A stretch of 51,901 nt of DNA from an uncultured virus (IMG/VR IMGVR_UViG_3300006103_001171) (IMGVR_UViG_3300006103_001171), one strand, 5' to 3'. Positions 2,353-34,541 are shown, counted from the stretch's first letter. Translations and numbers: made by a program. The notes: generated by a model not told the origin, from the sequence alone.

Positions 2353-2661
2353 ATGAGAAAAAGACCTTCAGATACAAATTCAGAAAAACCGAAAGCACCA
2401 GTTAAAAAACAAGAAAGTGCTCTTGGTAAGTTACCACCAAAAAAGATGGTCATAACTAAGAATGGTATTGAAGAGGTTGATATTAAATTGGATACAACTA
2501 GAAAATCTGACAATAAAAAATACGTAAAGGTTTTAGCTACTGAGACAAGCTTAGTATTCAAGGAAATCGGTGATAGGGTAGCTAAAAAAGAATTAAAGTG
2601 GTCGTATTATACGACTGAAAACAATATTGGTGTACATTATTATCAAATATTAAACGATTAA
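2353..2661 (+). CDS. hypothetical protein
   Basis: ORF after own promoter, coupled to next gene. Confidence 0.65.
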   Translation: MRKRPSDTNSEKPKAPVKKQESALGKLPPKKMVITKNGIEEVDIKLDTTRKSDNKKYVKVLATETSLVFKEIGDRVAKKELKWSYYTTENNIGVHYYQILND

Positions 2662-2662
2662 A

Positions 2663-3058
2663 ATGAGTTTAAAGATTAAAATATCTGAAGATTTAAAAAC
2701 AGCGATGAAAGAAAAGAATACAATCAAATTAGGTATTCTTAGAGTTCTTAAGGCTGAGATTGAAAGAAATGAACAATCCGCTAATGGTAAAATTGAATTA
2801 CCAGATGGTGACGTTATTAAAATAGTTAAGAAACTAATTGAGGGTATAAAAGAAACTACTAAAGACCAAGTTGAAATTGATGCTTTAGATTTGTATTTAC
2901 CTAAACAAATGAATGAGGATGAAATAAAGGCCATTATTGCTCTTGTTAAACAATCTGGCATTTCACAGATGGGTGAATTCATGAAGTACTTCAAGGTGTA
3001 TCATGATGGTGAATATGATGGTAAATTATTAAGTAACCTTGTAAAAGAATCATTATAA
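2663..3058 (+). CDS. GatB/YqeY domain protein
   Basis: MSLKxKIxEDLKxAMK...LRVLKAEI...YLPKQM...MG signature. Confidence 0.9.
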   Translation: MSLKIKISEDLKTAMKEKNTIKLGILRVLKAEIERNEQSANGKIELPDGDVIKIVKKLIEGIKETTKDQVEIDALDLYLPKQMNEDEIKAIIALVKQSGISQMGEFMKYFKVYHDGEYDGKLLSNLVKESL

Positions 3059-3459
3059 TGGCATCATTATTACTTATCGAGATTTTCACAATTATATTTA
3101 TTCATTGGGTATCCGATTTTGTGTTACAAACAGATTGGGAAGCTAAGAATAAAAGCAAAGATGACTTAGCTTTACTGTCACATACATCAAAGTATTCGAT
3201 GTGCTGGTTTATTCCAATTTTTATTTTATTTACGAAATTTGGACATAATGGTGATGTCTATTATAGGGTTAATATATCGTTCTTTTTTTGTGTTATCACA
3301 CTTGTATCCCATACCATAACGGATTACTTTACATCGAGACTTAATTCTAAATTATGGGCTAAGGGTCATGTACATAACTTCTTTGTTAGTGTTGGTTGGG
3401 ACCAAATTTGTCATTACGTACAACTATTTTTAACATATTACTTATTAAAAACAATTTAA
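3058..3459 (+). CDS. DUF3307-like membrane protein
   Basis: HxxxDFxLQT, HxxxD and DQxxH motifs. Confidence 0.8.
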   Translation: MASLLLIEIFTIIFIHWVSDFVLQTDWEAKNKSKDDLALLSHTSKYSMCWFIPIFILFTKFGHNGDVYYRVNISFFFCVITLVSHTITDYFTSRLNSKLWAKGHVHNFFVSVGWDQICHYVQLFLTYYLLKTI

Positions 3460-8717: not shown

Positions 8718-9059
8718 ATGAGTGAAGAATTAATAAGTTACGGAGAGTTTTTAGAAATAGCCAAAAAACTTGATATTAAATACGGTCAGGTAGTATCTGC
8801 TGAACGTATTGCAAAAAGTGATAAATTATTAAAATTGGTTGTTATTTTTGGTTCGGAAGAAGCTGACAAAAAAGTTGTTGTTACTAATTTAGGTGAAAAT
8901 TTTGAACCTTCAGCATTTGAAGGTTTAGTTTTACCATTTGTGATGAACTTAGTACCGTCTAAGATGATGGGTGTTACCAGTGAGGCTATGATTATGGTAC
9001 CTAAAATTGGTGATGTTATCGAATTAAATAACTATTCATTAGGTTCAAAATTGTTATAA
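8718..9059 (+). CDS. tRNA-binding OB-fold protein (CsaA/Trbp111/MetRS C-terminal-like)
   Basis: LDIKYGQVVSAE...SDKLLKL...NLVPSKMMGVTSEAM. Confidence 0.85.
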   Translation: MSEELISYGEFLEIAKKLDIKYGQVVSAERIAKSDKLLKLVVIFGSEEADKKVVVTNLGENFEPSAFEGLVLPFVMNLVPSKMMGVTSEAMIMVPKIGDVIELNNYSLGSKLL

Positions 9060-9060
9060 A

Positions 9061-9501
9061 ATGAGAAAAACCGCTGGTATATTTTTGGTAAAGAATGATG
9101 GTACTATTTTAGTTGGTCACCCTACAAACCATAAAAATGATTTCTTTAGCATCCCTAAAGGTGGTGTTGACGAAGGTGAAAGATTATTAGATGCTGCAAT
9201 AAGAGAAACTTATGAAGAATCTAATATTGATGTTTCTGATTATACATTTATTTGGACTTTAAATCCAAGAATGCATAAGAATAATAAAAAGATTTTCTAC
9301 CCTTATGTTTTACTTGAGAAGGAAAATCAATACGTTTTTGATGAGTTTGAAATTAAATGTAATTCAAATGTTACTATCGATGACTTTGAAATTCCAGAGA
9401 TGGATTCGTTTAAGTGGTTAACATTCGATGAGGCTAGGACTCATTTAAATCAAACACAAGTTGATTGTATTGATGAGGTTGAAAAATTATTTAACGCATA
9501 A
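9061..9501 (+). CDS. Nudix hydrolase
   Basis: PKGGVDEGE...[11 protein letters not shown]udix box. Confidence 0.9.
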
Positions 9502-9749
9502 TGTGGTATATTTATATAGTTGAGTGTGAAAAAGATGGGACACTCTATACTGGTATAACTACAGATGTAAATAGACGCATTTCAGAGCATAACTCTGGCA
9601 AGGGGGCTAAATACACTAGAACTAGAACACCAGTCGTTTTAAGAGCCTTATTTGAGGCTAATAATCGAAGCGAAGCTTCAAAAGAAGAATATAGAATTAA
9701 AAAACTTACAAAAATTGAAAAATTGAAACTATGCGACATAAAACAATAG
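9501..9749 (+). CDS. small GIY-YIG nuclease (UPF0213/YhbQ-like)
   Basis: [27 protein letters not shown]. Confidence 0.9.
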
Positions 9750-10302: not shown

Positions 10303-10841
10303 TTAAAAAAGTTTTAAGAGAATCAGTGGGTGATAAAATAACGAGATTAGCCGTCTTCGATTTTGACGGAACGTTATTGGATACACCATTACCAACCGAT
10401 GAAAATAAAGAAATTTATAAGGAAAAAACAGGTGAGGATTGGCCTAGTAAGGGTTGGTGGAGTAGACCAGAAACTCTTAATCAAGATATTTTTGATATTC
10501 CAGTTATTAAAGATGTTATTTCTGATTATAAAAAGGAAAAAGCTACACCTAACACTATGGTTATTATGCTAACTGGTAGAATACAAAAATTATCTAGTTA
10601 TGTTGAAGCTGTTTTGGCATCTAAGGGTCTTAAATTTGATGGTTATTTTTATAACACTGGTGGTAGTACTTTGGATAACAAAATCCATACAATGGAATCC
10701 ATATTAAAACAACATCCAACAATCAATCAAATAAATTGTTGGGACGATAGGTTAGAACACATTCCACACTTTCAAGCTTGGGGTGATAACCTTAAAGGTG
10801 TTGATTTTGAAATAACAATAGTTGAAAGCGGACATCATTAA
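10287..10841 (+). CDS. HAD-family phosphatase (RNA-repair HAD-like)
   Basis: VFDFDGTL, LTGR, WDDR motifs. Confidence 0.8.
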   Translation: MDKKVIKKVLRESVGDKITRLAVFDFDGTLLDTPLPTDENKEIYKEKTGEDWPSKGWWSRPETLNQDIFDIPVIKDVISDYKKEKATPNTMVIMLTGRIQKLSSYVEAVLASKGLKFDGYFYNTGGSTLDNKIHTMESILKQHPTINQINCWDDRLEHIPHFQAWGDNLKGVDFEITIVESGHH

Positions 10842-10898
10842 ACCCACACTTGTGGGTTTTTTGTTGTATGTGTGAAAATAAAATAGTATATTTGCGGT

Positions 10899-12848
10899 AT
10901 GATTAAAATAAATGATGTGATAGAAGGAAAAATAAGCGTTAACCATAGTGGTTCCGCTTATTTGGTTAGTGAGCAATCACCAAAGGATATTTATGTTCAT
11001 AAAAACAATATTAATAAAGCATTTCATTTGGATGTTGTTAAGATTAAAATAGTTAATGGTCGTGGTCGTGAACTTGAAGGTGTCGTTACTGAGATAGTTA
11101 AAAGATTCAGAGACGAATTTGTTGGTAGTATTCAAATATCAAAAAAACATGCATTCTTTATACCAGATAGTAACAAGATGCCGATAGATTTCTTTATACC
11201 TCTAACAAAATTAAAAGGTGCTAAAGATGCTCAAAAAGTTGTTGTTAAATTAACATCTTGGAAAGATAACAGTAAAAACCCTAATGGTGAAGTTATAAAG
11301 ATTCTAGGTGAAGCTGGTGATAATGAAGTAGAAATTCACTCAATACTCCATGAGTATGATTTACCCTATGACTTTGAACCTGACATTTTGGCTGAAGCTG
11401 AGGCGATATCGAGTGAGATAAGACAGTCTGACATAGATGCTCGTAGAGATATGAGGGATGTACTTACTTTTACAATTGACCCAGTAGATGCCAAGGATTT
11501 CGATGATGCTTTATCAGTACAATGGGTTAATGGTCAACTTGAAGTTGGTGTTCATATTGCCGATGTATCACATTATTTAAGACCAGATACGGACTTAGAT
11601 AAAGAAGCTTATCGTAGAGGTACCAGTGTTTACTTAGTTGATAGAGTTGTACCAATGCTTCCAGAAAGGCTTTCTAATGGCTTATGTAGTCTTAGACCAC
11701 ATGAAGAGAAGTTGTGTTTTTCAGCGATATTTACGCTTGACCAAAATGCAACAATTGTAAATGAATGGTTTGGAAGAACAATTATTAATTCTGACCATAG
11801 GTTTACATATGAAGGAGCCCAAGAAATAATTGAAGGTAAACCACATTTCTATGAGTCTGATGAACTTGATGTTAATGGTGGATATGTTAAAACGCTTGGT
11901 GGTATGATAAAAGATGCGGTATTAGCTCTTGATAAGTATGCTAAAAAGCTTAGAAAGCAAAGACTTGGTGAAGGTTCAATTACTTTCGATAAGCAAGAAA
12001 TAAGATTCAAATTGGATGAAAACAACAAGCCAGTTGACCTTATATTCAAGATAGCTAAAGACTCAAATCAATTGATTGAAGAATTCATGCTTTTAGCGAA
12101 TAGAAGGGTTGCTTATTTGTTAAATCACAATGATTACCCAGATATCAATCGTGTGCATGAGGAACCAAGTCAAGAAAAGCTTTTAGCATTAAAGCAATTT
12201 ATTAAGCAATTTGGTTATGATATTAAGGTAAATACACCTGAGGAAATAACTTTATCACTTAACAAATTACTTGCTAGTGTTAAGGGTAAAGCTGAAGAAA
12301 ACATAGTTTCTAACCTTGTGGTTAGGTCAATGCAGAAAGCGGCTTATTCTACAAAGAACTTAGGTCATTATGGTCTTGGATTTGAAGATTACGCTCATTT
12401 CACCAGTCCAATTAGAAGATATCCAGACGTAATGGTGCACAGACTTCTAGGACGCTATTTAGAGGCTAAAGCAGCCCCTAAATTAGATAAGTTGGAGTCA
12501 AGGTGCCAATACTTATCTGAACGTGAAAGAAAGGCTCAAAAAGCTGAAAGAGATAGCATCAAGTATATGCAATGCATATATATGAGTGAAAGAATTGGTA
12601 ATGTTTATAAAGGACTTATCACTTCGGTTACTGATTATGGTATGTTTATAACAATTTGTGAAAATAATTGTGAGGTATTGGTAAAATTAACATCAATCAA
12701 TGGAACTTGGTTGGTGGATTTAAAAAAATATCAAATAGTTGAATTTGACACTAAAGAAAAAATAAGATTAGGTGATTATGTTCATGTAGTTATTACTAAA
12801 GTTGATGTTGAAAAAAAGAATATTGATGCATCAATTATGCTTCTCTAA
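10899..12848 (+). CDS. rnr: ribonuclease R
   Basis: TIDPVDAKDFDDA, LIEEFMLLAN, HFTSPIRRYPD, C-terminal S1 domain. Confidence 0.95.
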   Translation: MIKINDVIEGKISVNHSGSAYLVSEQSPKDIYVHKNNINKAFHLDVVKIKIVNGRGRELEGVVTEIVKRFRDEFVGSIQISKKHAFFIPDSNKMPIDFFIPLTKLKGAKDAQKVVVKLTSWKDNSKNPNGEVIKILGEAGDNEVEIHSILHEYDLPYDFEPDILAEAEAISSEIRQSDIDARRDMRDVLTFTIDPVDAKDFDDALSVQWVNGQLEVGVHIADVSHYLRPDTDLDKEAYRRGTSVYLVDRVVPMLPERLSNGLCSLRPHEEKLCFSAIFTLDQNATIVNEWFGRTIINSDHRFTYEGAQEIIEGKPHFYESDELDVNGGYVKTLGGMIKDAVLALDKYAKKLRKQRLGEGSITFDKQEIRFKLDENNKPVDLIFKIAKDSNQLIEEFMLLANRRVAYLLNHNDYPDINRVHEEPSQEKLLALKQFIKQFGYDIKVNTPEEITLSLNKLLASVKGKAEENIVSNLVVRSMQKAAYSTKNLGHYGLGFEDYAHFTSPIRRYPDVMVHRLLGRYLEAKAAPKLDKLESRCQYLSERERKAQKAERDSIKYMQCIYMSERIGNVYKGLITSVTDYGMFITICENNCEVLVKLTSINGTWLVDLKKYQIVEFDTKEKIRLGDYVHVVITKVDVEKKNIDASIMLL

Positions 12849-13536
12849 ACCCTTTAGACAAATTATCATACCACCATAACGGTTGTAAATTGGATAATGC
12901 ATTTACAATCTTTATATCCGTATTTTTATCGAATGTTGAAACTGGTTTAATATGGTCGATGTGCCATTCACCATAATTATCCCAAGTCATATCTTCAGTA
13001 AATAACTTTTCAATATGATTTTTTAACTCTAAAGCTGAATAACCAAGTATATCAACTGTATTTTTCTCTTTCTTTTTATTAAATCTTCTTAATACAGATT
13101 TCAATGAACTTCTCCAAGCTCTTATATGTGGATTTTTTAAATCATATTGTTTTTTATATTCAGCAATTTTTTCTTTGTTGTTTTGTCTATATTCTTTTTG
13201 GTATTCCAATATATGTGATTTATTTTTTACATAATCTTCTTTTTTTAGCCTCTTAATTATTTCAGGATTTGAATCTCTATAGTTTTTACGATTAGTACTA
13301 ATAATATTTCGATTAAGCTTATAATATTCTAGATTTGTTTTTTTAATGCTATCAGATTCTTTCAAATATTTAATTTTTGATTTTTCACTTAATCTTTCTT
13401 TGTTTTTTTTATAAAAATTTTGTTTATCGATACTTATACAATTTTTACAAATTTTTTTATAACCATCAATAAAATTTTTATTTTTGTGAAATTCACAAAA
13501 ATCTTTTTTTTTATTACATTTTACACATTTTTTCAT
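12835..13536 (-). CDS. HNH homing-type endonuclease
   Basis: N-terminal CxxC, helical repeats, MTWDNYGEWHIDHIKP...NLQPLW..NLSK. Confidence 0.85.
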   Translation of the reverse strand: MKKCVKCNKKKDFCEFHKNKNFIDGYKKICKNCISIDKQNFYKKNKERLSEKSKIKYLKESDSIKKTNLEYYKLNRNIISTNRKNYRDSNPEIIKRLKKEDYVKNKSHILEYQKEYRQNNKEKIAEYKKQYDLKNPHIRAWRSSLKSVLRRFNKKKEKNTVDILGYSALELKNHIEKLFTEDMTWDNYGEWHIDHIKPVSTFDKNTDIKIVNALSNLQPLWWYDNLSKGFREA

Positions 13537-13615
13537 AATTACTTTTATTATAAATATCACCTAAAATGAAAAAGTTCGGTGTTTTTATTGAAATTATTTG
13601 TGAAAACCATTTTTT

Positions 13616-13828
13616 TATGGTATATTTGTTGAAGTATCAGAAAATAAATCTGAAGGTTTAATTAAACTAACAGATATTTCTGGTGATACTTATAGTGTCG
13701 ATATGAAGAATTATTGTGTTAGAGGTTTTAACACTGGTCGAGTATTAAGACTTGGGGATGAGGTTTTTATTAGTGTTGTAAGTGTTGACATTGAGAAAAA
13801 AAATATTAACTTTGCACTTATAAATTAA
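13616..13828 (+). pseudogene. displaced second copy of RNase R C-terminal S1 domain
   Basis: YGIFVEVSENKSEGLIKL...LRLGDEVFISVVSVDIEKKNINFALIN* aligns with rnr C-terminus YGMFITICENNCEVLVKL...IRLGDYVHVVITKVDVEKKNID. Confidence 0.9.
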
Positions 13829-13833
13829 AGATT

Positions 13834-14139
13834 ATGATAGATTTTAAAACGAACATTTTAGTTTGTGATTGCAACAGTGCTGAACATCAATTATTAGTTA
13901 GATACTTTGAAGATGATACTGATGGTGAAGTGTATGTTGAAACACACTTAACAAAAAAGCCACTTTTAGAAAGGCTAATTTACGGTATCAAGTATATCTT
14001 CGGTTATCAATCAAGATTTGGTGCTTTTGATGAGGTTGTATTAGGTCCTCAGCACATAAACAGCTTACAATCTGTAATTGACCATTTAAAGAAAATTGAG
14101 GGTGAGAAATTACAAACCGATATGTTTAATGACAGATGA
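13834..14139 (+). CDS. hypothetical protein
   Basis: CxC..H motif; 101 aa. Confidence 0.7.
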   Translation: MIDFKTNILVCDCNSAEHQLLVRYFEDDTDGEVYVETHLTKKPLLERLIYGIKYIFGYQSRFGAFDEVVLGPQHINSLQSVIDHLKKIEGEKLQTDMFNDR

Positions 14140-14569
14140 GATTCTAATAAATAATTTTTTAACCAGACATTATGATGTAATCATTAATAATGGTGAATTT
14201 TGTTTTCGGGATAAGTCATCAAAACAAACCCTTAAAATCGGTGAGCTTTCAATAGTATTTTCTAAAATTTTCAGTTATGATAAAACTGATGATTTAAAAA
14301 AACCGATGGAGATTGCTAAACTTTGGTTAGAAAGCAAGAGAATTGAATTAACTAAAATTATTAACGGTTATTTAGCCGATTATAAAGTTATATTAAATAA
14401 ATCTGATTGGGAAGTTAGAGATAAAGAAAATAATTTAGTAACAAATGAAACAATAATGAAATTAGCTACTAACGGTTCTATTGGTATGTTTTACGTATCA
14501 ATATTTGAAGAATGGTTAGATAATGAAATACTTATTGTTTCGTTAAAATTAATGGATGAATATGATTAA
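14129..14569 (+). CDS. hypothetical protein
   Basis: overlaps neighbours in operon. Confidence 0.6.
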   Translation: MTDEILINNFLTRHYDVIINNGEFCFRDKSSKQTLKIGELSIVFSKIFSYDKTDDLKKPMEIAKLWLESKRIELTKIINGYLADYKVILNKSDWEVRDKENNLVTNETIMKLATNGSIGMFYVSIFEEWLDNEILIVSLKLMDEYD

Positions 14570-15266
14570 ACTTATTTTTATAAGCGATACTCATGGTAAG
14601 CATCGTGATTTAGATAATGATTTAAAGGCCTTAGGTTATGATAATGAAACAATTATTATACATGCTGGTGACTGCACTAATACTGGTAAATCATATGAGT
14701 TGGTAAACTTTTTGGGTTGGTTTGGTGATTTACCTTATAAACATAAGGTTTTTATTGCTGGTAACCATGATTTTTGTTTTGAGTCGAGTACTTCAAGTCC
14801 AAATGTATATCCTAACATTTCACAAGAATTTAAAGATAAGGGTATTACATATCTAATGGATGAAATGGTTGAAATTGAAGGTTTAAAAATATATGGTAGT
14901 CCTTGGCAACCAGAATTTTATGATTGGGCGTTTAATGTAAAGCGTGGTGAAGCCATTGCGCAAAAATGGGTTAAAATACCAGAGGATTTAGATGTGCTTA
15001 TTACGCATGGTGGTCCATATGGTATTTTAGATTATACCTATACTGGAGTTAGGGTTGGTTGTGAAGAACTTTATAAAAAAGTGATGAAGGTTCGTCCAAA
15101 GATACATGCATTCGGACACATACATTATGCTTATGGTTATAAAGAATTTGATGGAATGTCATTCATTAATGCTGCTAGTTTAGGTGAAAATTATGAATAT
15201 CAAAACAAACCAATAATGTTAATATTAGATGATGATAAAAATATAATTGATATAAAAGTAAATTAA
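14562..15266 (+). CDS. metallophosphoesterase (MPPED-like)
   Basis: SDTH, HAGD, GNHD, THGGP, FGHIH. Confidence 0.9.
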   Translation: MIKLIFISDTHGKHRDLDNDLKALGYDNETIIIHAGDCTNTGKSYELVNFLGWFGDLPYKHKVFIAGNHDFCFESSTSSPNVYPNISQEFKDKGITYLMDEMVEIEGLKIYGSPWQPEFYDWAFNVKRGEAIAQKWVKIPEDLDVLITHGGPYGILDYTYTGVRVGCEELYKKVMKVRPKIHAFGHIHYAYGYKEFDGMSFINAASLGENYEYQNKPIMLILDDDKNIIDIKVN

Positions 15267-15317
15267 TTTGATTTTTAATCAAATTATTTTGTATATTTGC
15301 ACATCAATTTAATTATT

Positions 15318-15755
15318 ATGAACATTATTAACAAGAAAAAGGACGCATATTTTGAGTATGAAATACTTGATAAATTTACTGCTGGTATCGTTTTAATGGG
15401 TACTGAGGTAAAGTCAATCAGAGAATCTAAAGTTTCAATCTCTGAAGCTTATTGTACAATTATTAACGGTGAAATTTTTATACTGGGTATGCACATTTCT
15501 GATTATAAGAAAATAAAGCATACCAATCATGCACCATTACGCAATCGTAAACTTCTTTTGAATAGAAAGGAAATTGATAAATTATCCAAATCAATCAAAG
15601 AAAAGGGTTTAACAATTGTTCCATTATGTGTTTTTATATCTGATACTGGGTTAATTAAGATTGAAATCGGTTTAGGTAGAGGTAAAAAAGTCTACGATAA
15701 AAGAAACAGTATAAAAGAAAAAGACCAAAAAAGAAGTTTGGAACGAAATTATTAA
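15318..15755 (+). CDS. smpB: SsrA-binding protein
   Basis: AGIVLMGTEVKSIR, RKLLLNRKEI, GRGKKVYDKR. Confidence 0.95.
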   Translation: MNIINKKKDAYFEYEILDKFTAGIVLMGTEVKSIRESKVSISEAYCTIINGEIFILGMHISDYKKIKHTNHAPLRNRKLLLNRKEIDKLSKSIKEKGLTIVPLCVFISDTGLIKIEIGLGRGKKVYDKRNSIKEKDQKRSLERNY

Positions 15756-15812
15756 AATAAATTTGGTTAATAACTTTTTTACCCTTACATTTGCATAAAA
15801 TTTATAATAACT

Positions 15813-16661
15813 ATGAAAGTATTTAGAATACAAGACAAGATTACGTCTAGAGAAACTGGTACATTTAAGCAATACTTAAATGACATTGCAAACATTAAGC
15901 CATTTACACCTTCTGAAGAAGAAGCATGCGCAAAAATGGCTGCTATGGGTGATAAAGCGGCTATTGACGAGTTGGTAACACGTAATTTAAGATTTGTAGT
16001 AACAGTTGCTAAGCAATACGAAACATCAACCATAAGCCTAGAGGATTTGGTTAATGAGGGTAATATTGGATTAATACTTGCCGCTGAGAAGTATAATTTA
16101 ACCATGGGCTTTAAGTTTATCACTTACGGTGTATTCTGGATTAGAAAACTAATCTTGGAATATCTATCCAATCATAGCAAATTAATCAGGCTACCAACCA
16201 ATAAAATTTCTAACATTAGCAAATTAACACAAAAGGTTAATGCGTTAGAACAAAGCCTAGGTCGTGAGGTTGATATTACTGAAGTAAACTATGCTTCTGA
16301 TTCAGACCTATCTGATGAAGATATTTTAGAACTTCAAAGAATATCAAATATTAGTTTTGAATCATTTGATTCACCATTAGATGGTGATGAAGTTGGTTCT
16401 CGTTATGATTTTATTGCTAATACTAACGAAAAAACAACTGACCACATTGTGCTTGATACAGACTTAAAGAATCAAATTAATGATATATTAAATATTCTTA
16501 AGCCTAGGGATAAAAAGGTTATGATTTCTTTGTTTGGTTTAGATGGTTCAAATCCATTAACCCTAAAAGAAGTTAGTGAAGATGTTGGGTTAACTAGTGA
16601 GATGGTTAGAAAAATTAAGGAAAGCAGTCTTGTTAAACTTAGAAATAAGTTTACGTTATAG
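15813..16661 (+). CDS. RpoD/SigA-family sigma factor (short Bacteroidota type)
   Basis: NLRFVVTVAKQY, DLVNEGNIGL, FKFITYGVFWIR, region 4 HTH. Confidence 0.9.
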   Translation: MKVFRIQDKITSRETGTFKQYLNDIANIKPFTPSEEEACAKMAAMGDKAAIDELVTRNLRFVVTVAKQYETSTISLEDLVNEGNIGLILAAEKYNLTMGFKFITYGVFWIRKLILEYLSNHSKLIRLPTNKISNISKLTQKVNALEQSLGREVDITEVNYASDSDLSDEDILELQRISNISFESFDSPLDGDEVGSRYDFIANTNEKTTDHIVLDTDLKNQINDILNILKPRDKKVMISLFGLDGSNPLTLKEVSEDVGLTSEMVRKIKESSLVKLRNKFTL

Positions 16662-17238
16662 GGTTATGTACACAATATTTCTTTATGTCTCGATTAACCT
16701 TAGAACATAATGGTTGTAAATTAGAATAGTGGTTTAATCGAAGTAATTCAATTTCATTAATCGCTGAGTCTAAGGGTATTATATGGTCAATATCCCAACC
16801 ATAATTTAATTCACCATTATATAACCCACGATTATTCCAATTCATCCATGGTTCAAATTTTGATTCTAAATATAATTTAAAATCATCGTAAGAGCATCCA
16901 AGTATTTTTTCTGTTTTTGATAATTTTTTAAAATTATTATGTCTTAATGAGTTTCCGATTAAATTTCTTATATTAGTTTTTAATTTGAATAAGGTATCAT
17001 TATTACGTTTTACCTTATAATATTCGTTAAGTTTATTTTTATTTTCCTTAGCCCATTTTTTTGAGCTATCTAAGATTTTATCTTTATTTGTTTCGTAATA
17101 CGCTTTTTTACTTTCTTTAATTTTATCTCGATTGTTCTCTAAGTATTTTCTTCTTTTTTCTTTATTAGCTGCTTGATATGCTTTATCATAAATTCGTTTA
17201 GCCTCTTTTTTTTCCTCTAATGTTAATTCTTTTTTCAT
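16651..17238 (-). CDS. HNH homing-type endonuclease
   Basis: ILGCS...WMNWNN...WDIDHIIP...HYSNLQPLCS. Confidence 0.85.
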   Translation of the reverse strand: MKKELTLEEKKEAKRIYDKAYQAANKEKRRKYLENNRDKIKESKKAYYETNKDKILDSSKKWAKENKNKLNEYYKVKRNNDTLFKLKTNIRNLIGNSLRHNNFKKLSKTEKILGCSYDDFKLYLESKFEPWMNWNNRGLYNGELNYGWDIDHIIPLDSAINEIELLRLNHYSNLQPLCSKVNRDIKKYCVHNPIT

Positions 17239-18271: not shown

Positions 18272-19090
18272 TTATATTATATCACGTTTAACCCACCTAT
18301 TAACATAACTACATAACGGCTTGAGGTTTGTATAATGGTTTAATTTAACCACATCCTCTTCTGTTATAGCAGTTGTTACAGGAATGATATGGTCAATATC
18401 CCATGTCTTATTCGGTTCAAATAAACCGTCTTTAGGGTTACCGTAATTATCCCAATTCATCCATGATTCCCATTGAGATTCTAAGTGAAGTTTAAATTCA
18501 TCAAATGAACATCCAAGTATTTTTTCTGATTTAAGTGATTTTTTAAAGCCTTTATTTTTAATTGACGAGCGAATTAATTGCCTAATATTAGTTTTTATTC
18601 GGAAGAGTGGTTCTGTTTGTTTACGTTCCCTATTTCTAGCATTACGTTTATCCTTATCACCCTTAAATTTTTCTTTATTAGCCTGATAATACGTTTTATT
18701 GTAAGCGGCTCTTTCTTCGGGTGTTTTTGATTTTTTTACTTTAGGTAATTTATTTAATTTAACTAAACTACGTTGTTCTTTTAATCTTTGATTACGTTTT
18801 ATTTTATTTTCTTCTTTACTGCTATATATTTTATTTATGCTCGATATTTTAGATTTATTAACTTCTCGATATTCCTTGGCTTTTTTTGTTATCTTTTCTT
18901 TATTAGCCTCACGGTAATTTTTTTGTAATTCAATTAATTTAACTTTGTTAGCTTCACACCAAGCTTTTCGTTGTTCAGCTATTTTTTCTTTATTAGCTTT
19001 ACGCCATTGTTTTTGCTGTTCAGCTAATTTTTCTTTGTTAGCTTCACGCCAAGCTTTTCGTTGTTCAGCTATTTTTTCTTGTTTTGTCAT
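18272..19090 (-). CDS. HNH homing-type endonuclease with 14-aa N-terminal tandem repeats
   Basis: KEKIAEQRKAWREAN-type repeats; WDIDHIIP...HYTNLKPLCS. Confidence 0.85.
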   Translation of the reverse strand: MTKQEKIAEQRKAWREANKEKLAEQQKQWRKANKEKIAEQRKAWCEANKVKLIELQKNYREANKEKITKKAKEYREVNKSKISSINKIYSSKEENKIKRNQRLKEQRSLVKLNKLPKVKKSKTPEERAAYNKTYYQANKEKFKGDKDKRNARNRERKQTEPLFRIKTNIRQLIRSSIKNKGFKKSLKSEKILGCSFDEFKLHLESQWESWMNWDNYGNPKDGLFEPNKTWDIDHIIPVTTAITEEDVVKLNHYTNLKPLCSYVNRWVKRDII

Positions 19091-29541: not shown

Positions 29542-29574
29542 AATAAGGTTAACCTTTAAAGGTTAACCTTATTT
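29542..29574. terminator. perfect palindromic terminator
   Basis: AATAAGGTTAACCTTTAAAGGTTAACCTTATT. Confidence 0.75.
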
Positions 29575-30224
29575 CTTTTTATATGTCTATTGTAATAACT
29601 ACACAGTGGTTGAAGATTACTATAATACCATAGTCTAATAAGTGTCTCTTCATCCTCAGCTAAACTTGTTGGAATTATATGGTCAATATCCCAACCATAA
29701 TTTAATTCACCATTGTATAGGCCATAGTTATCCCAATTCATCCATGATTCCCATTTAGATTCAATAAATAATTTAAATTGTTCACTTGAACATCCTAATA
29801 TATCTATAGTTCTATTTTTCTTACTGAAATTATTGGTCTTAAATATTTTTTTTAAATTTGTTCTAATGTTTTCTTTTAATGCGAAAAATCTATCTGAATG
29901 ATATTTCTTTTTTCTTTTGATTGTTTCATTCTTATTAATTTTTTCTTTATTTTGTTTATAATATGTTTTACGTTTCTCTTTAATAATTTCCGAATTTTCT
30001 ATATAATAAACTTTACGCTTCTGGCTAATAGTCTTTTTATTTTCAATATACCTTTTTTTTCTGTATTTGCTTATTTTTTCATCGTTTAAAATCGCTGTTT
30101 TTTTACTTCGTTCTATTGAGCATATTTTACAATCATTACGCCTACCATCAACAGCATCAAGTCTTTTATAAAAGTCGGTTAATGGTTTTTCAGTACCACA
30201 TTTATTACATATTTTTGTTTCCAT
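29556..30224 (-). CDS. HNH homing-type endonuclease
   Basis: CNKC..CKIC; WDIDHIIP...SNLQPLCS. Confidence 0.85.
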   Translation of the reverse strand: METKICNKCGTEKPLTDFYKRLDAVDGRRNDCKICSIERSKKTAILNDEKISKYRKKRYIENKKTISQKRKVYYIENSEIIKEKRKTYYKQNKEKINKNETIKRKKKYHSDRFFALKENIRTNLKKIFKTNNFSKKNRTIDILGCSSEQFKLFIESKWESWMNWDNYGLYNGELNYGWDIDHIIPTSLAEDEETLIRLWYYSNLQPLCSYYNRHIKRNKVNL

Positions 30225-31622: not shown

Positions 31623-32462
31623 ATGAATTATACATCAACCGATACAATTTTATACCTTGATAAGGTTAGCGTGGGTTATAAAGATAAAAATGACCACAGC
31701 AAAGTAAATATGATACTTAAAGACGTATCATTGGAAGAAAAAGACATTCACCGTGAAGGTCATTCAGCTACTGGTCAAACAATAGCCTTTATTGGTCGTT
31801 CAGGTCGTGGTAAATCAACACTTTTTAAGGCCTTAACTGGTCTGTTGAAACCTACAAGTGGTAAAGTACTTATCATGGATGGTAACCCTAATATTCATAA
31901 TTCAGCTAAAGAAGTTGCTGAGGGCGATGTTGGATTTGTTGACCAGAAGTATACGCTTTTTCGTCATAAAACTCTCACCCAGATTCTACATTATGCGATG
32001 CGCAAGATAAACAAGACCAAACAAGAAAAGGATGCTATTATTGATAGTTATTTAGCTGATTGGGGTCTTGCTGAACATAAGGATAAGTACCCTTGTGAAC
32101 TATCAGGTGGTCAAAGGCAACGTACAGCGATACTTGAACAGATGCTTACATCTAAGCACTTTATCGTGTTGGATGAACCAGCATCGGGACTTGATGTTTA
32201 CGCAATCGAAAAGATGAAATCGTCATTTAATAAAATTTTATCTGATGATGAATTGAATACTATTATCTTTAGCACTCACGACATTAAATTAGCCGTTGAA
32301 ATGGCTGATAGTATTTATGTAATTGGTCGTCCAGAAGGTGTGGAATACAGTACTATTTTAAGACATTTTGATTTAAAACAAATGGGTATTGCTTGGCAAG
32401 AGTATGGAAATGCTCATAGACAATTAACTCAAGATATTAAAAGTTTATTACTTAATTCTTAA
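31623..32462 (+). CDS. ABC transporter ATPase
   Basis: GRSGRGKST, LSGGQ, VLDEP, STHD. Confidence 0.95.
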   Translation: MNYTSTDTILYLDKVSVGYKDKNDHSKVNMILKDVSLEEKDIHREGHSATGQTIAFIGRSGRGKSTLFKALTGLLKPTSGKVLIMDGNPNIHNSAKEVAEGDVGFVDQKYTLFRHKTLTQILHYAMRKINKTKQEKDAIIDSYLADWGLAEHKDKYPCELSGGQRQRTAILEQMLTSKHFIVLDEPASGLDVYAIEKMKSSFNKILSDDELNTIIFSTHDIKLAVEMADSIYVIGRPEGVEYSTILRHFDLKQMGIAWQEYGNAHRQLTQDIKSLLLNS

Positions 32463-33250
32463 TTATCACGTTTGATATTACGATTGTGATAACTACAAAG
32501 TGGTTGAAGATTGGAGTAATGATTTAATTTAATTACTTCGTCTTCAACTTTTGTTGTTTTAAGAGGTGTAATATGGTCAATATCCCAACCATAGTTTTCA
32601 GTTCCGTTATAAAGTCCATAGTTATCCCAATTCATCCATGGTTCAAATAACCCCTCAAGATGCTGTTTAAACTCTTCAAATGTGCAACCTAATATTTCGT
32701 ATGTCTTAGATTTTTTTGTATAACCACCGTTTTTTATACTAACATTTATTCTATGTCGAATAGCATCTTTAGCTCGATAAAAAGGGTCTTTACGTTTTTC
32801 TATCAGTGATAGTTTTTCACGTTTTCTAACTTTATCCCAGTTATTTTTTCTATACTCTTTTTGTCTAATTTTTATACGTTCTTTATTTGCTTCGTAATAA
32901 GCTTTTAGTTTTTCTTTATTCTTTTGCGTATATTCGAAAGATTTTTGTTTTATCTTATCTTTATTCGCTTCTCGATATTTAAGTTTAATTACTTTACTTT
33001 GTTCTTTAATACGGTCATTATTTTTCTGATACCATTGTTTTTTATATTCTTTTAGTTTATCAGAATTTAATTTAGCGTATTCTTTTTTTGTTACTGCGTA
33101 TTTATCAAAGTTTTTTAAATATTCGGTGTGTTTCTTTTCTTTTTCACAAGACTTACAATAAGACCTTAATTTATTCTTAGTTTTATTGTATATTGTAAAA
33201 CCAGATAATTGAATATCTAATTGGCATATACTACAAACTTTACTTTCCAT
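32459..33250 (-). CDS. HNH homing-type endonuclease
   Basis: CSIC..CKSC; WDIDHITP...HYSNLQPLCS. Confidence 0.85.
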   Translation of the reverse strand: MESKVCSICQLDIQLSGFTIYNKTKNKLRSYCKSCEKEKKHTEYLKNFDKYAVTKKEYAKLNSDKLKEYKKQWYQKNNDRIKEQSKVIKLKYREANKDKIKQKSFEYTQKNKEKLKAYYEANKERIKIRQKEYRKNNWDKVRKREKLSLIEKRKDPFYRAKDAIRHRINVSIKNGGYTKKSKTYEILGCTFEEFKQHLEGLFEPWMNWDNYGLYNGTENYGWDIDHITPLKTTKVEDEVIKLNHYSNLQPLCSYHNRNIKRDN

Positions 33251-33398
33251 CTGACTTAAATTTATTGAAATATTCAACTAATAACCAGTTGATTAGTTTT
33301 GATTTGTTCTCTTGGTTTAATAATTGATAATTTTCCTCAGAAATACTAATACTCAGTTTTTTCTTTTTGTTCTCAGTAGACTTTTGTTTTCTTCCCAT
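33240..33398 (-). CDS. small ribbon-helix-helix-like protein (52 aa, not in ORF track)
   Basis: MGRKQKSTENKKKKLSISISEENY...NKSKLINWLL; overlaps HNH start. Confidence 0.7.
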   Translation of the reverse strand: MGRKQKSTENKKKKLSISISEENYQLLNQENKSKLINWLLVEYFNKFKSDGK

Positions 33399-34422: not shown

Positions 34423-34493
34423 GGTTCTATAGCTCAACGGCAGAGCTGGACTCTCTAAAAGTCTTGATGTTGGTTCGATTCCGACTAGAATCA
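34423..34493 (+). tRNA. amber suppressor tRNA (anticodon CTA)
   Basis: full cloverleaf; GGACT-CTCTAAA-AGTCT places CTA at 34455-34457; own promoter. Confidence 0.85.
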
Positions 34494-34541
34494 CACTTTA
34501 CATTTTTTAACAATTATTGTATATTTATAAAAAAAAGAAAT

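Follow-up and report, generated by a model that had tools for sequence, protein, structure and literature searches.

An HNH endonuclease gene and a foreign S1 tail probably inserted together into the RNase R gene of a huge freshwater phage

How does a gene that is itself intact come to be followed by a second copy of its own 3' end? The question is raised by rnr, the gene for RNase R, in a 51,901-nucleotide (nt) stretch of DNA from an uncultured virus (IMG/VR IMGVR_UViG_3300006103_001171; the whole stretch is referred to hereafter as the window), where an antisense HNH endonuclease gene stands between the end of rnr and the additional copy. An earlier note on this DNA had proposed that the endonuclease inserted within rnr and brought a substitute C-terminus with it, and every element on which that proposal drew (rnr, the antisense HNH gene, the second tail copy and a short echo of the tail) was found where the note had placed it. 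Our answer, which we hold to be quite probable, is that an HNH homing-endonuclease gene and a foreign S1 tail of the last 70 codons were inserted into rnr, and that the native tail was displaced downstream.

The locus belongs to a huge freshwater phage. The window is AT-rich (31% G+C), with nearly all of its genes on the + strand, and the deposited phages that match it best are uncultured and huge (630–735 kb); over 3.3 kb it is 100% identical to an IMG/VR viral record and to a 343,332-bp metagenome contig, and a 60.5-kb copy (G001) is likewise identical to it over the 3.3 kb compared. The features of the locus are as follows.

10899..12635, + strand: resident rnr body, codons 1–579 (OB/CSD, RNB catalytic domain, and linker to ...SVTD before Tyr-Gly)
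12636..12848, + strand: foreign S1 tail (type B'), codons 580–649 and TAA; the working C-terminus
12835..13536, − strand: free-standing HNH endonuclease gene, 233 residues, the reading frame being open to a GTG at 13560
13537..13565, no strand: spacer of 29 nt between the HNH start codon and the echo
13566..13610, + strand: echo, in which the S1 start recurs in a third version, preceded by an ATG and in a frame different from that of the remnant
13611..13615, no strand: TTTTT joint between echo and remnant, within a run of seven T (13609–13615)
13616..13828, + strand: displaced native S1 tail (type A remnant, so assigned by the tails of relatives), 70 codons and TAA, without a start codon
13834..14139, + strand: next resident gene, 101 residues (PHROG 12660 “virion structural protein”, E 2.5e-7), which marks where the disturbance stops on the right

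The rnr gene (10899–12848, +) is a single open reading frame (ORF) of 649 codons, the same length as its relative P0003, with Pfam matches to OB_RNB, CSD2, RNB (residues 182–522, E 2.3e-110) and S1 (residues 565–646, E 5.1e-9). The predicted product is RNase R, an RNB family 3'–5' exoribonuclease with the full OB/CSD-RNB-S1 domain set, and the gene is indeed intact, as had been noted from the outset. The region behind the HNH gene, 13616–13828, encodes a sequence identical to rnr residues 580–649 at 31 of 69 positions (45%, BLASTP E 4e-20), and matches Pfam S1 on its own (E 3.9e-6). Upstream of it, the frame contains stops, and no ATG, GTG or TTG lies between the last of these and the Tyr-Gly codons with which the copy begins; the first in-frame start within the remnant is an ATG at 13703. 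This confirms the description of a second, diverged copy of about the last 70 rnr codons, lacking a start and free of internal stops. The stop codons of rnr, the HNH gene and the remnant are TAA in each case.

Which of the two tails is native can be asked of the relatives of RNase R. Our comparison set comprised the 119 best relatives from a search with the C-terminal 250 residues, each split into body and tail at the Tyr-Gly motif; 113 of these were at least 600 residues long and splittable at the motif, 96 were distinct, and the first 70 by rank were used for trees. By their bodies, P0003–P0008 are the nearest relatives (88.3–92.6% identical, P0003 at 92.6%), and their tails are 82.9–84.3% identical to the remnant versus 42.0–47.8% to the present tail. 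The present tail is instead nearest to those of P0039/P0040 (72.9% identical), the bodies of which are 67–68% identical to that of the window. Trees repeat this division: the body of the window is sister to P0003 (Shimodaira–Hasegawa approximate likelihood ratio test, SH-aLRT, 99), the present tail is sister to P0039 (SH-aLRT 99), and the remnant falls in an eight-row clade with P0003–8, P0029 and P0030 (SH-aLRT 95). Holding the body with P0039 is rejected at a cost of 400 log-likelihood units (approximately unbiased test, p-AU 6.6e-6); with the short tail alignment, holding the present tail with the tails of the nearest body relatives is rejected at p-AU 0.010, and holding the remnant with P0039 and the present tail at p-AU 0.028. 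On these alignments and trees, rnr reads as a chimera whose 5' and 3' parts have different histories.

The point of exchange can be followed in the alignment, in which the window tracks P0003/P0005 through ...ERIGNVYKGLITSVTDYG and then switches at YG/MF; the left crossover can be placed only approximately, since two residues upstream of the switch (the L of PKLDK and the C of YMQC) are already in the state of the other clade (type-B-like). At the conserved Tyr-Gly codons (residue 580), the resident body continues in frame into the foreign tail, so that a full-length RNase R of 649 residues is still encoded. Two tail copies in the same orientation, 980 nt apart, are also what would be left by a tandem duplication in place, followed by divergence and a later insertion of the HNH gene between them. 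We give this scenario almost no credence: the copies are 45% identical to each other while the body is 93% identical to its relatives, and the working copy groups with another lineage (SH-aLRT 99), its placement in the local clade being rejected (p 0.010).

An empty site is provided by the related locus L008, whose body is 80% identical to that of the window and whose tail is 78.6% identical to the remnant. L008 possesses a single tail of the remnant type, then approximately 230 nt without an HNH gene, then the same downstream gene as the window; at the site itself it reads ...GTTACTGAG followed directly by TATGGTATATTTGT..., that is, the left flank of the window and then the first 14 bases of the remnant. 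Homologues of the downstream gene (13834–14139) are found behind rnr in L008 (61.6%) and L009 (53.8%), and at a greater distance in L018 (41%). In the window, foreign tail and HNH gene form one 980-bp insert, 12636–13615, within rnr. The C-terminus of the HNH-free relatives (P0003–P0008 and L008) is of the type found at 13616–13828, and as none of them carries the present C-terminus, the earlier reading stands; the relatives' tails, the discordant trees and the empty site each support an insertion inside rnr with a substitute C-terminus.

The filled state is rare. We fetched rnr loci with the window protein (24), with P0025 (23) and with P0040 (80), and an HNH gene at the rnr 3' end, or a second tail, was present at 0 of 23 other IMG/VR rnr loci and at 0 of 80 further loci; among loci of the P0025 set with a tail match, two tails occur in 1 of 22, which is the window's own contig. 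By this comparison, the HNH gene is present or absent at the same site among relatives, as for the free-standing homing endonuclease genes (HEGs) of phages. The layout might in principle be an artefact in which the rnr ends of two strains were joined during assembly, the sequence being assembled from a metagenome and the junction at about 13546–13651 being unbridged by the listed contig pieces in four runs (X5, X7, X8 and X10). We regard such a chimera as scarcely credible, as the same 3.3 kb are 100% identical in the IMG/VR record and the 343-kb metagenome contig, the Logan contigs of three further runs (X5, 12200–12700; X7, 12542–12875; X8, 12398–12658 and 12818–13126) run across the left junction and the rnr/HNH overlap and show no difference at these places, and four runs (possibly source samples) contain all sampled words of 12200–14200. 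In total, 24 public freshwater runs contain part or all of 12200–14200, with no RNA run among them.

The remnant appears to be the resident's own former tail, pushed behind the HNH gene and, without a start codon, now drifting. Between remnant and P0003 tail, 11 of 70 positions differ (15.7%), compared with 43 of 579 (7.4%) between the bodies; approximately 5.2 differences would be expected in the remnant at the body rate (Poisson p about 0.02, by simple arithmetic), and in intact relatives the divergence of tail and body is about equal. Two positions conserved at 90% or more have been altered, namely an Ile that 110 of 113 relatives retain and a Cys retained by 111 of them. These changes fit a displaced, unselected piece that is not very old, given that it has acquired no stop or frameshift yet.

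The same divergence figures bear on a rival explanation, in which a different phage was the place where the composite locus took shape, and the complete locus then came into this lineage through ordinary recombination in the flanks or through standard homing with long co-conversion, so that the remnant would not be the tail of this lineage. The distance of the remnant from P0003 is about double that of the body (15.7% versus 7.4%), and the type-B-like L of PKLDK and C of YMQC upstream of the junction may be the trace of a conversion tract of greater length. The extra divergence is explained equally well, however, by a dead fragment being under relaxed selection, and the remnant lies within the clade of the nearest body relatives (SH-aLRT 95); we consider entry as a finished composite unlikely, and it would alter where the event happened rather than what the structure is.

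The HNH gene occupies an antisense ORF (12835–13560) that ends within the last four codons of rnr, overlapping the rnr 3' end by 14 nt; its start is probably the ATG at 13536, as in relatives. The product comprises an N-terminal CxxC...CxxC zinc ribbon, eight predicted helices of 14 residues and a C-terminal HNH motif (W-H-I-D-H-I-x-P ... N ... N-L-Q-P-L-W ... N), and matches PHROG 1035 “endonuclease VII” (E 2.1e-20); the Pfam HNH match, at 16.8 bits, is below the 21.4 cut-off. Thirty of 4877 database relatives were aligned. Asp194, His195, Asn216 and Asn225 are invariant in these 30, and are present also in 11 sequences that include four paralogues from the window, and the cysteines C4/C7...C30/C33 are invariant or nearly so across the 30. 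An AlphaFold model (predicted local distance difference test, pLDDT, 89) presents a small N-terminal strand unit, eight 14-residue helices and a C-terminal strand–strand–helix element (strands 191–195 and 217–221, then helix 222–231). A profile search of PDB sequences with the HNH protein returned nothing at E <= 1, and Foldseek with the model returned no match at E <= 0.001; the best VIA match is weak (Z 4.2 to PacI, root-mean-square deviation 4.9 over 86 residues), the top structure rows being almost all HNH domains (PacI, Gme HNH, Cas9 HNH, phage GVE2 HNH). We take the product to be a member of the HNH (beta-beta-alpha-metal) endonuclease superfamily and an intact predicted endonuclease, which looks active because all motif residues are invariant across the 30 relatives.

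No Rfam intron family matches at E <= 1 in 10500–16000 (the only match, to a snoRNA at E 0.7, is a chance one), and the HNH gene is antisense to rnr; for both reasons we describe it as a free-standing nuclease gene that is neither intron nor intein, in agreement with the earlier note. Promoter-like sites are not enriched in 12400–14000 (14 versus 12.5 expected), 0 terminators were found there, and no minus-strand promoter-like site was called in the spacer 13537–13565. Four further genes of the HNH family lie on the − strand of the window (16651–17238, 18272–19090, 29556–30224 and 32459–33277); these antisense, intergenic paralogues are approximately 30% identical to the copy at rnr, and the family is matched seven times in the 60.5 kb of G001.

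The foreign DNA and the HNH gene have both borders in common, and their coding ends interlock over 14 nt, which leads to the question of whether tail and nuclease travel together. The sole close relative of the present tail, that of P0039/P0040, is by sequence comparison also foreign to its own body: the P0040 body is 84–91% identical to those of L251–L256, P0091, P0105 and P0079, while its tail is 53–60% identical to theirs. One tail lineage would thereby sit on two bodies that are 67% identical, foreign to both. The only close relative of the HNH protein is P0122, at 73% identity, the same divergence as that of the tails. The ends of P0040 (...SIIRL*) and P0122 (...KDVL*) can be encoded on opposite strands of one sequence at an overlap of 17 nt only, which is the geometry of the window plus one extra codon present in P0122; over overlaps of 8–26 nt, the window's own rnr/HNH pair fits only at its true 14 nt and the cross pairs never fit. 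As a control, distinct C-termini were combined (49 x 106); of the 5194 pairs, 3 are compatible at 17 nt, each of them involving the end of P0122, and 4 at 14 nt. Indirectly, this compatibility points to a further genome whose rnr ends in a tail of this lineage, overlapped there by a nuclease gene of the lineage found in the window, and it suggests that S1 tail and HNH gene move as one unit. If a second rnr body, 67% identical to the first, carries this tail lineage and probably the HNH lineage with it, the cassette would be mobile as a unit.

The tails of other relatives have also been exchanged. P0025 and P0030 have bodies 99.0% and tails 56.5% identical, P0011 and P0024 bodies 95.2% and tails 59.4%, and P0040 and P0091 bodies 91% identical with tails in the 56–59% range; in the first two pairs the switch falls after ENKC, 12 codons beyond Tyr-Gly. 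The tails of P0025–P0027 and P0011 are of type C, and their bodies are 95–99% identical to those of type-A genes. On the body tree, three tail classes change at least seven times besides the window (a rough count, as two class boundaries are weakly supported). Since near-identical bodies carry diverged tails, the S1 boundary is a recurrent exchange point in the rnr family of huge phages.

Exchanges of this kind have no known link to a nuclease, and they give some weight to the possibility that two unrelated events met at this locus, an unequal or illegitimate recombination at the S1-start codons between co-infecting phages and an HNH gene that landed there by chance. The abrupt tail swaps of relatives (at least seven class changes), the abundance of the HNH family in this genome (four more copies in the window, seven matches in G001) and the absence of a flanking duplication from typical family members (1 of 129 loci has one) are all as such a coincidence would have them. 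A chance landing does not readily account for a foreign segment and an HNH gene that have both borders in common and interlocked coding ends, nor for a tail and a nuclease that are each 73% identical to their only close relatives, when those relatives pass an overlap test passed by 3 of 5194 pairs, which argues for co-inheritance. We consider the coincidence distinctly unlikely.

We return to the preferred reading, insertion of tail and HNH gene together, and to what the junctions record. The 9-mer TTATGGTAT is present at both junctions (12635 and 13615), as the earlier note had pointed out; it occurs also at 3311 (−) and 33797, and is not to be taken as an established footprint. Four matches in the window compare with 1.3 expected (4 of 100 shuffles reach four), and eight of the nine bases are accounted for by the Tyr-Gly-Ile/Met codons that the copies share, so that the 9-mer is best described as the start of homology between the copies. 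Given its four sites in the window and the shared codons, its interpretation as a target-site duplication or insertion footprint was set aside as unproven.

The echo (13566–13610) is a 15-codon piece, MKKFGVFIEIICENH, of which the 13-codon S1-start version is KFGVFIEIICENH. A motif for the S1 start, [FY]G[IVLM]F[IV].[IV].{1,2}EN, composed after the three copies had been seen, matches the window, translated in six frames, at three places only (12636, 13575 and 13616), and has no match in any of 200 mononucleotide shuffles; the short third echo that had been noticed from 13566 is thus a genuine third version of the S1 start. At 12 scored positions it agrees with several relatives at eight, with the present tail at seven and with the remnant at five. 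Its length is exactly the 13 codons between the two switch points of the family (Tyr-Gly, and after ENKC), and it stands out of register ahead of the complete remnant. The cassette may have brought with it a short relic of an earlier target, repair having ended by microhomology or end joining in the T run; alternatively, echo and remnant may derive from two rounds of invasion followed by a deletion.

In the pattern of −1 frameshifting, a slippery heptamer has the form X XXY YYZ. The T run (13606–13618, C-A-T-TTT-TTT-A) fits a −1 slippery heptamer that would join the echo ORF (13566) to the frame of the remnant, a fit that is probably due to chance in an AT-rich genome. It is the basis of a further alternative, that the remnant is still used, as a small S1-like protein made either by a −1 slip on the T run from the ATG at 13566 or from the ATG at 13703. 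The T TTT TTT sequence would read straight into Y-G-I-F after such a shift, and 70 open codons at 31% G+C have a chance of about 0.002 in random sequence (a simple estimate). However, an open frame is what one would expect for some time after the displacement of a coding piece; the cysteine kept in 111 of 113 relatives has been lost, the product would contain the first strand twice, and T runs are common in this genome. We find continued use of the remnant very improbable.

The following sequence of events, modeled on yeast WHO elements and fungal mitochondrial mobile ORFs, would produce the observed layout. In a mixed infection, the HNH enzyme would nick or cut a cassette-free rnr allele in the conserved S1-start codons, and the break would be repaired from the cassette-bearing genome. 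The left end would recombine in the conserved gene body, while the right end would rejoin out of register at or near the start of the recipient's own tail, a joining that would leave first the echo (probably a relic of a previous target carried by the cassette) and then the complete old tail. The diverged substitute tail would keep rnr working and would protect the new allele from recutting.

Several observations weigh against this account. The out-of-register right-hand junction is not predicted by simple homologous repair, and the extra divergence of the remnant could equally mean that remnant and cassette arrived together from another host. The searches turned up no donor genome, the closest tail being 72–73% and the nearest HNH protein 73% identical; a tail-only search of a set of 5.8 billion proteins yielded nothing closer than 72–73% (seven matches among 13 candidates). 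Among the Logan contigs of four sequencing runs, none with the empty allele was seen. The four HNH paralogues in the window have no duplicated flanks. Loci of HNH relatives were collected from IMG/VR (37 with the window HNH, 80 with P0122) and from metagenomes (80), and the HNH gene lies at an rnr 3' end in 0 of 36 other IMG/VR, 0 of 79 metagenome and 0 of 79 further IMG/VR loci; in one of them (L209), rnr starts 1.2 kb downstream of the HNH gene. A coding duplication across the HNH gene is found in 1 of 129 distinct family loci with both flanks, that of this phage, from which it follows that the family is normally intergenic and without such a cassette. The adjacency of P0040 and P0122 is deduced from coding compatibility, and the rnr ends of P0113 and P0102 also fit P0122, so that its rnr partner is not singled out uniquely. 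Lastly, the tail swaps of relatives, known from proteins alone, could reflect ordinary recombination at a conserved motif.

In the family-wide test, the only flank repeats besides those of the rnr locus are short and non-coding. They are direct repeats of approximately 69 nt that flank HNH-family genes on two unrelated contigs (L132, 830–898 and 1946–2014; L204, 3877–3945 and 4930–4998), and they contain stops (tblastx E 1e-7 and 3e-5). A different arrangement is seen in L267 (2420–2464; also in L268), where a 15-codon rnr start with its ATG, MIKINDILEGRLSMN, lies just past the 3' end of an antisense HNH gene (2477–3205), and the full rnr on the other side of that gene (3501 onward) begins ...R-I-N-V-G-D and lacks an ATG, GTG or TTG where its start would be expected. 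The match to the rnr start covers 13 residues only (tblastn E 0.014); L267/L268 may be a 5'-end counterpart of the layout in the window. A further HNH paralogue, in L002 (1433–1849; about 8767–9183 of G001), is N-terminally shortened to 138 residues and lies between two larger genes; it is 60–61% identical over the nuclease half and 72% at the DNA level, and nearby ORFs display repeated basic motifs and, by eye, a GIY-YIG-like start, giving the region a nuclease-dense look. A stand-alone GIY-YIG protein of 82 residues (Pfam E 1.5e-19) is encoded at 9501–9749 (+) of the window, after a NUDIX gene and 1.1 kb upstream of rnr.

A broader and more tentative reading, to which we assign somewhat less than an even chance, is that S1 tail and antisense HNH gene form a phage counterpart of the WHO elements that homes repeatedly into the rnr of huge phages, swapping the RNA-binding domain and leaving relics behind. 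Under repeated homing, and with the same reserve, the echo would be the relic of an earlier round and the remnant that of the native gene. If this were true, a selfish nuclease would drive the domain-level mosaicism of the rnr family (bodies 99%, tails 56% identical), and the interlocked 3' ends would tie the nuclease to its “antidote” tail.

The closest known system is that of the WHO elements at the yeast aldolase gene FBA1, in which, according to the available text of Coughlan et al. (2020, PMC7282813), an endonuclease gene stands directly behind a full-length essential gene. On WHO integration the 3' end of the gene is replaced by a diverged copy and the old 3' end is pushed downstream as a fragment whose openness is dispensable; trees of the 5' part of the host gene contradict those of the 3' part; what moves is the endonuclease gene together with the resistant 3' end that lies upstream of it, with repeated rounds stacking up relics; and the downstream fragment is, in the WHO model, the site of homologous recombination. 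The phage locus likewise has a nuclease behind a whole gene, a displaced native end and discordant 5' and 3' trees, and the stacking of relics may explain its echo. The systems differ in that WHO proteins are intein-like with zinc fingers, whereas the enzyme here is an HNH nuclease; in the host (a yeast nuclear genome versus a phage); in the orientation of the phage HNH gene, antisense and overlapping the end of the host gene; and in the right junction, out of register in the phage. Cleavage has been demonstrated for WHO6, whereas the phage locus is known from sequence alone. PMC7282813 mentions phages 0 times.

A similar logic applies to the mobile ORFs (mORFs) of fungal mitochondria, which carry a foreign C-terminus and have been described, in the portion of Beaudet et al. 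(2013, PMC3630166) that we could consult, for atp6, atp9, cox2 and nad3 of Glomus sp., with atp6 of Allomyces macrogynus as a case cited there. The native copy is 91–98% identical in nucleotides to close relatives versus 64–81% for the inserted copy, which clusters elsewhere. The order of inserted C-terminus, endonuclease ORF and native C-terminus downstream is that of the phage locus; mORF enzymes are of the LAGLIDADG or GIY-YIG type, often in frame and organellar, whereas here the gene is an antisense phage HNH and a whole folded domain (S1) has been exchanged. The phage locus would thus work like WHO and mORF elements; it would not be a member of either family by descent, because its enzyme is an HNH rather than a LAGLIDADG or GIY-YIG nuclease.

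Among phages, the HEG-islands of ICP1-like and other phages, as presented in the main text of a preprint (Barth et al., 2023, PMC10055350), contain free-standing nuclease genes edging exchanged essential genes, and small genes that “appear to be fragments of essential cargo”, proposed as recombination substrates; that text, figures and supplements aside, describes no explicit in-frame substitute end with a displaced native end. In the intronless homing of T4 Seg and Mob nucleases (Edgell et al., 2010, PMC2988022, in the text available), a free-standing phage HNH or GIY-YIG gene likewise lies beside or inside its presumed target and spreads by break repair and co-conversion of the flank, but the flank is converted or the gene is split into two polypeptides (Aeh1 nrdA/mobE, T4 gene 60/mobA), and the string “duplicat” occurs 0 times there. 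Our literature search, within the accessible parts of the papers retrieved, returned no phage case in which a nuclease gene stands between a substitute gene end, fused in frame, and the displaced native end, PMC10055350 coming closest.

RNase R is an enzyme tied to ribosome rescue, and the window also encodes SmpB (15297–15755, +; Pfam E 1.5e-55), 2.4 kb from RNase R, so that two parts of a ribosome-rescue pathway are present; ARAGORN detected no transfer-messenger RNA in the window. One of its 11 tRNA genes (34423–34494, +) has the anticodon CTA and is labelled tRNA-Pyl by ARAGORN; it would be expected to act as an amber suppressor. Suppressor tRNAs are known from huge phages.

As the principle is established in yeast and in fungal mitochondria, the locus brings phages within the range of a known mechanism; the mechanism itself is not new. 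It indicates that a free-standing homing nuclease can enter a useful gene without an intron or intein, and without splitting that gene, by carrying a replacement part, and it makes a specific enzyme and its presumed target available for work on an HNH family that is uncharacterised and abundant in huge phages. Should the unit be mobile, which the second chimeric body suggests, past invasions would have left datable footprints in the form of stranded fragments, and the swapping of domains in phage proteins, here of the RNA-binding S1 domain, would have selfish nucleases among its direct causes.

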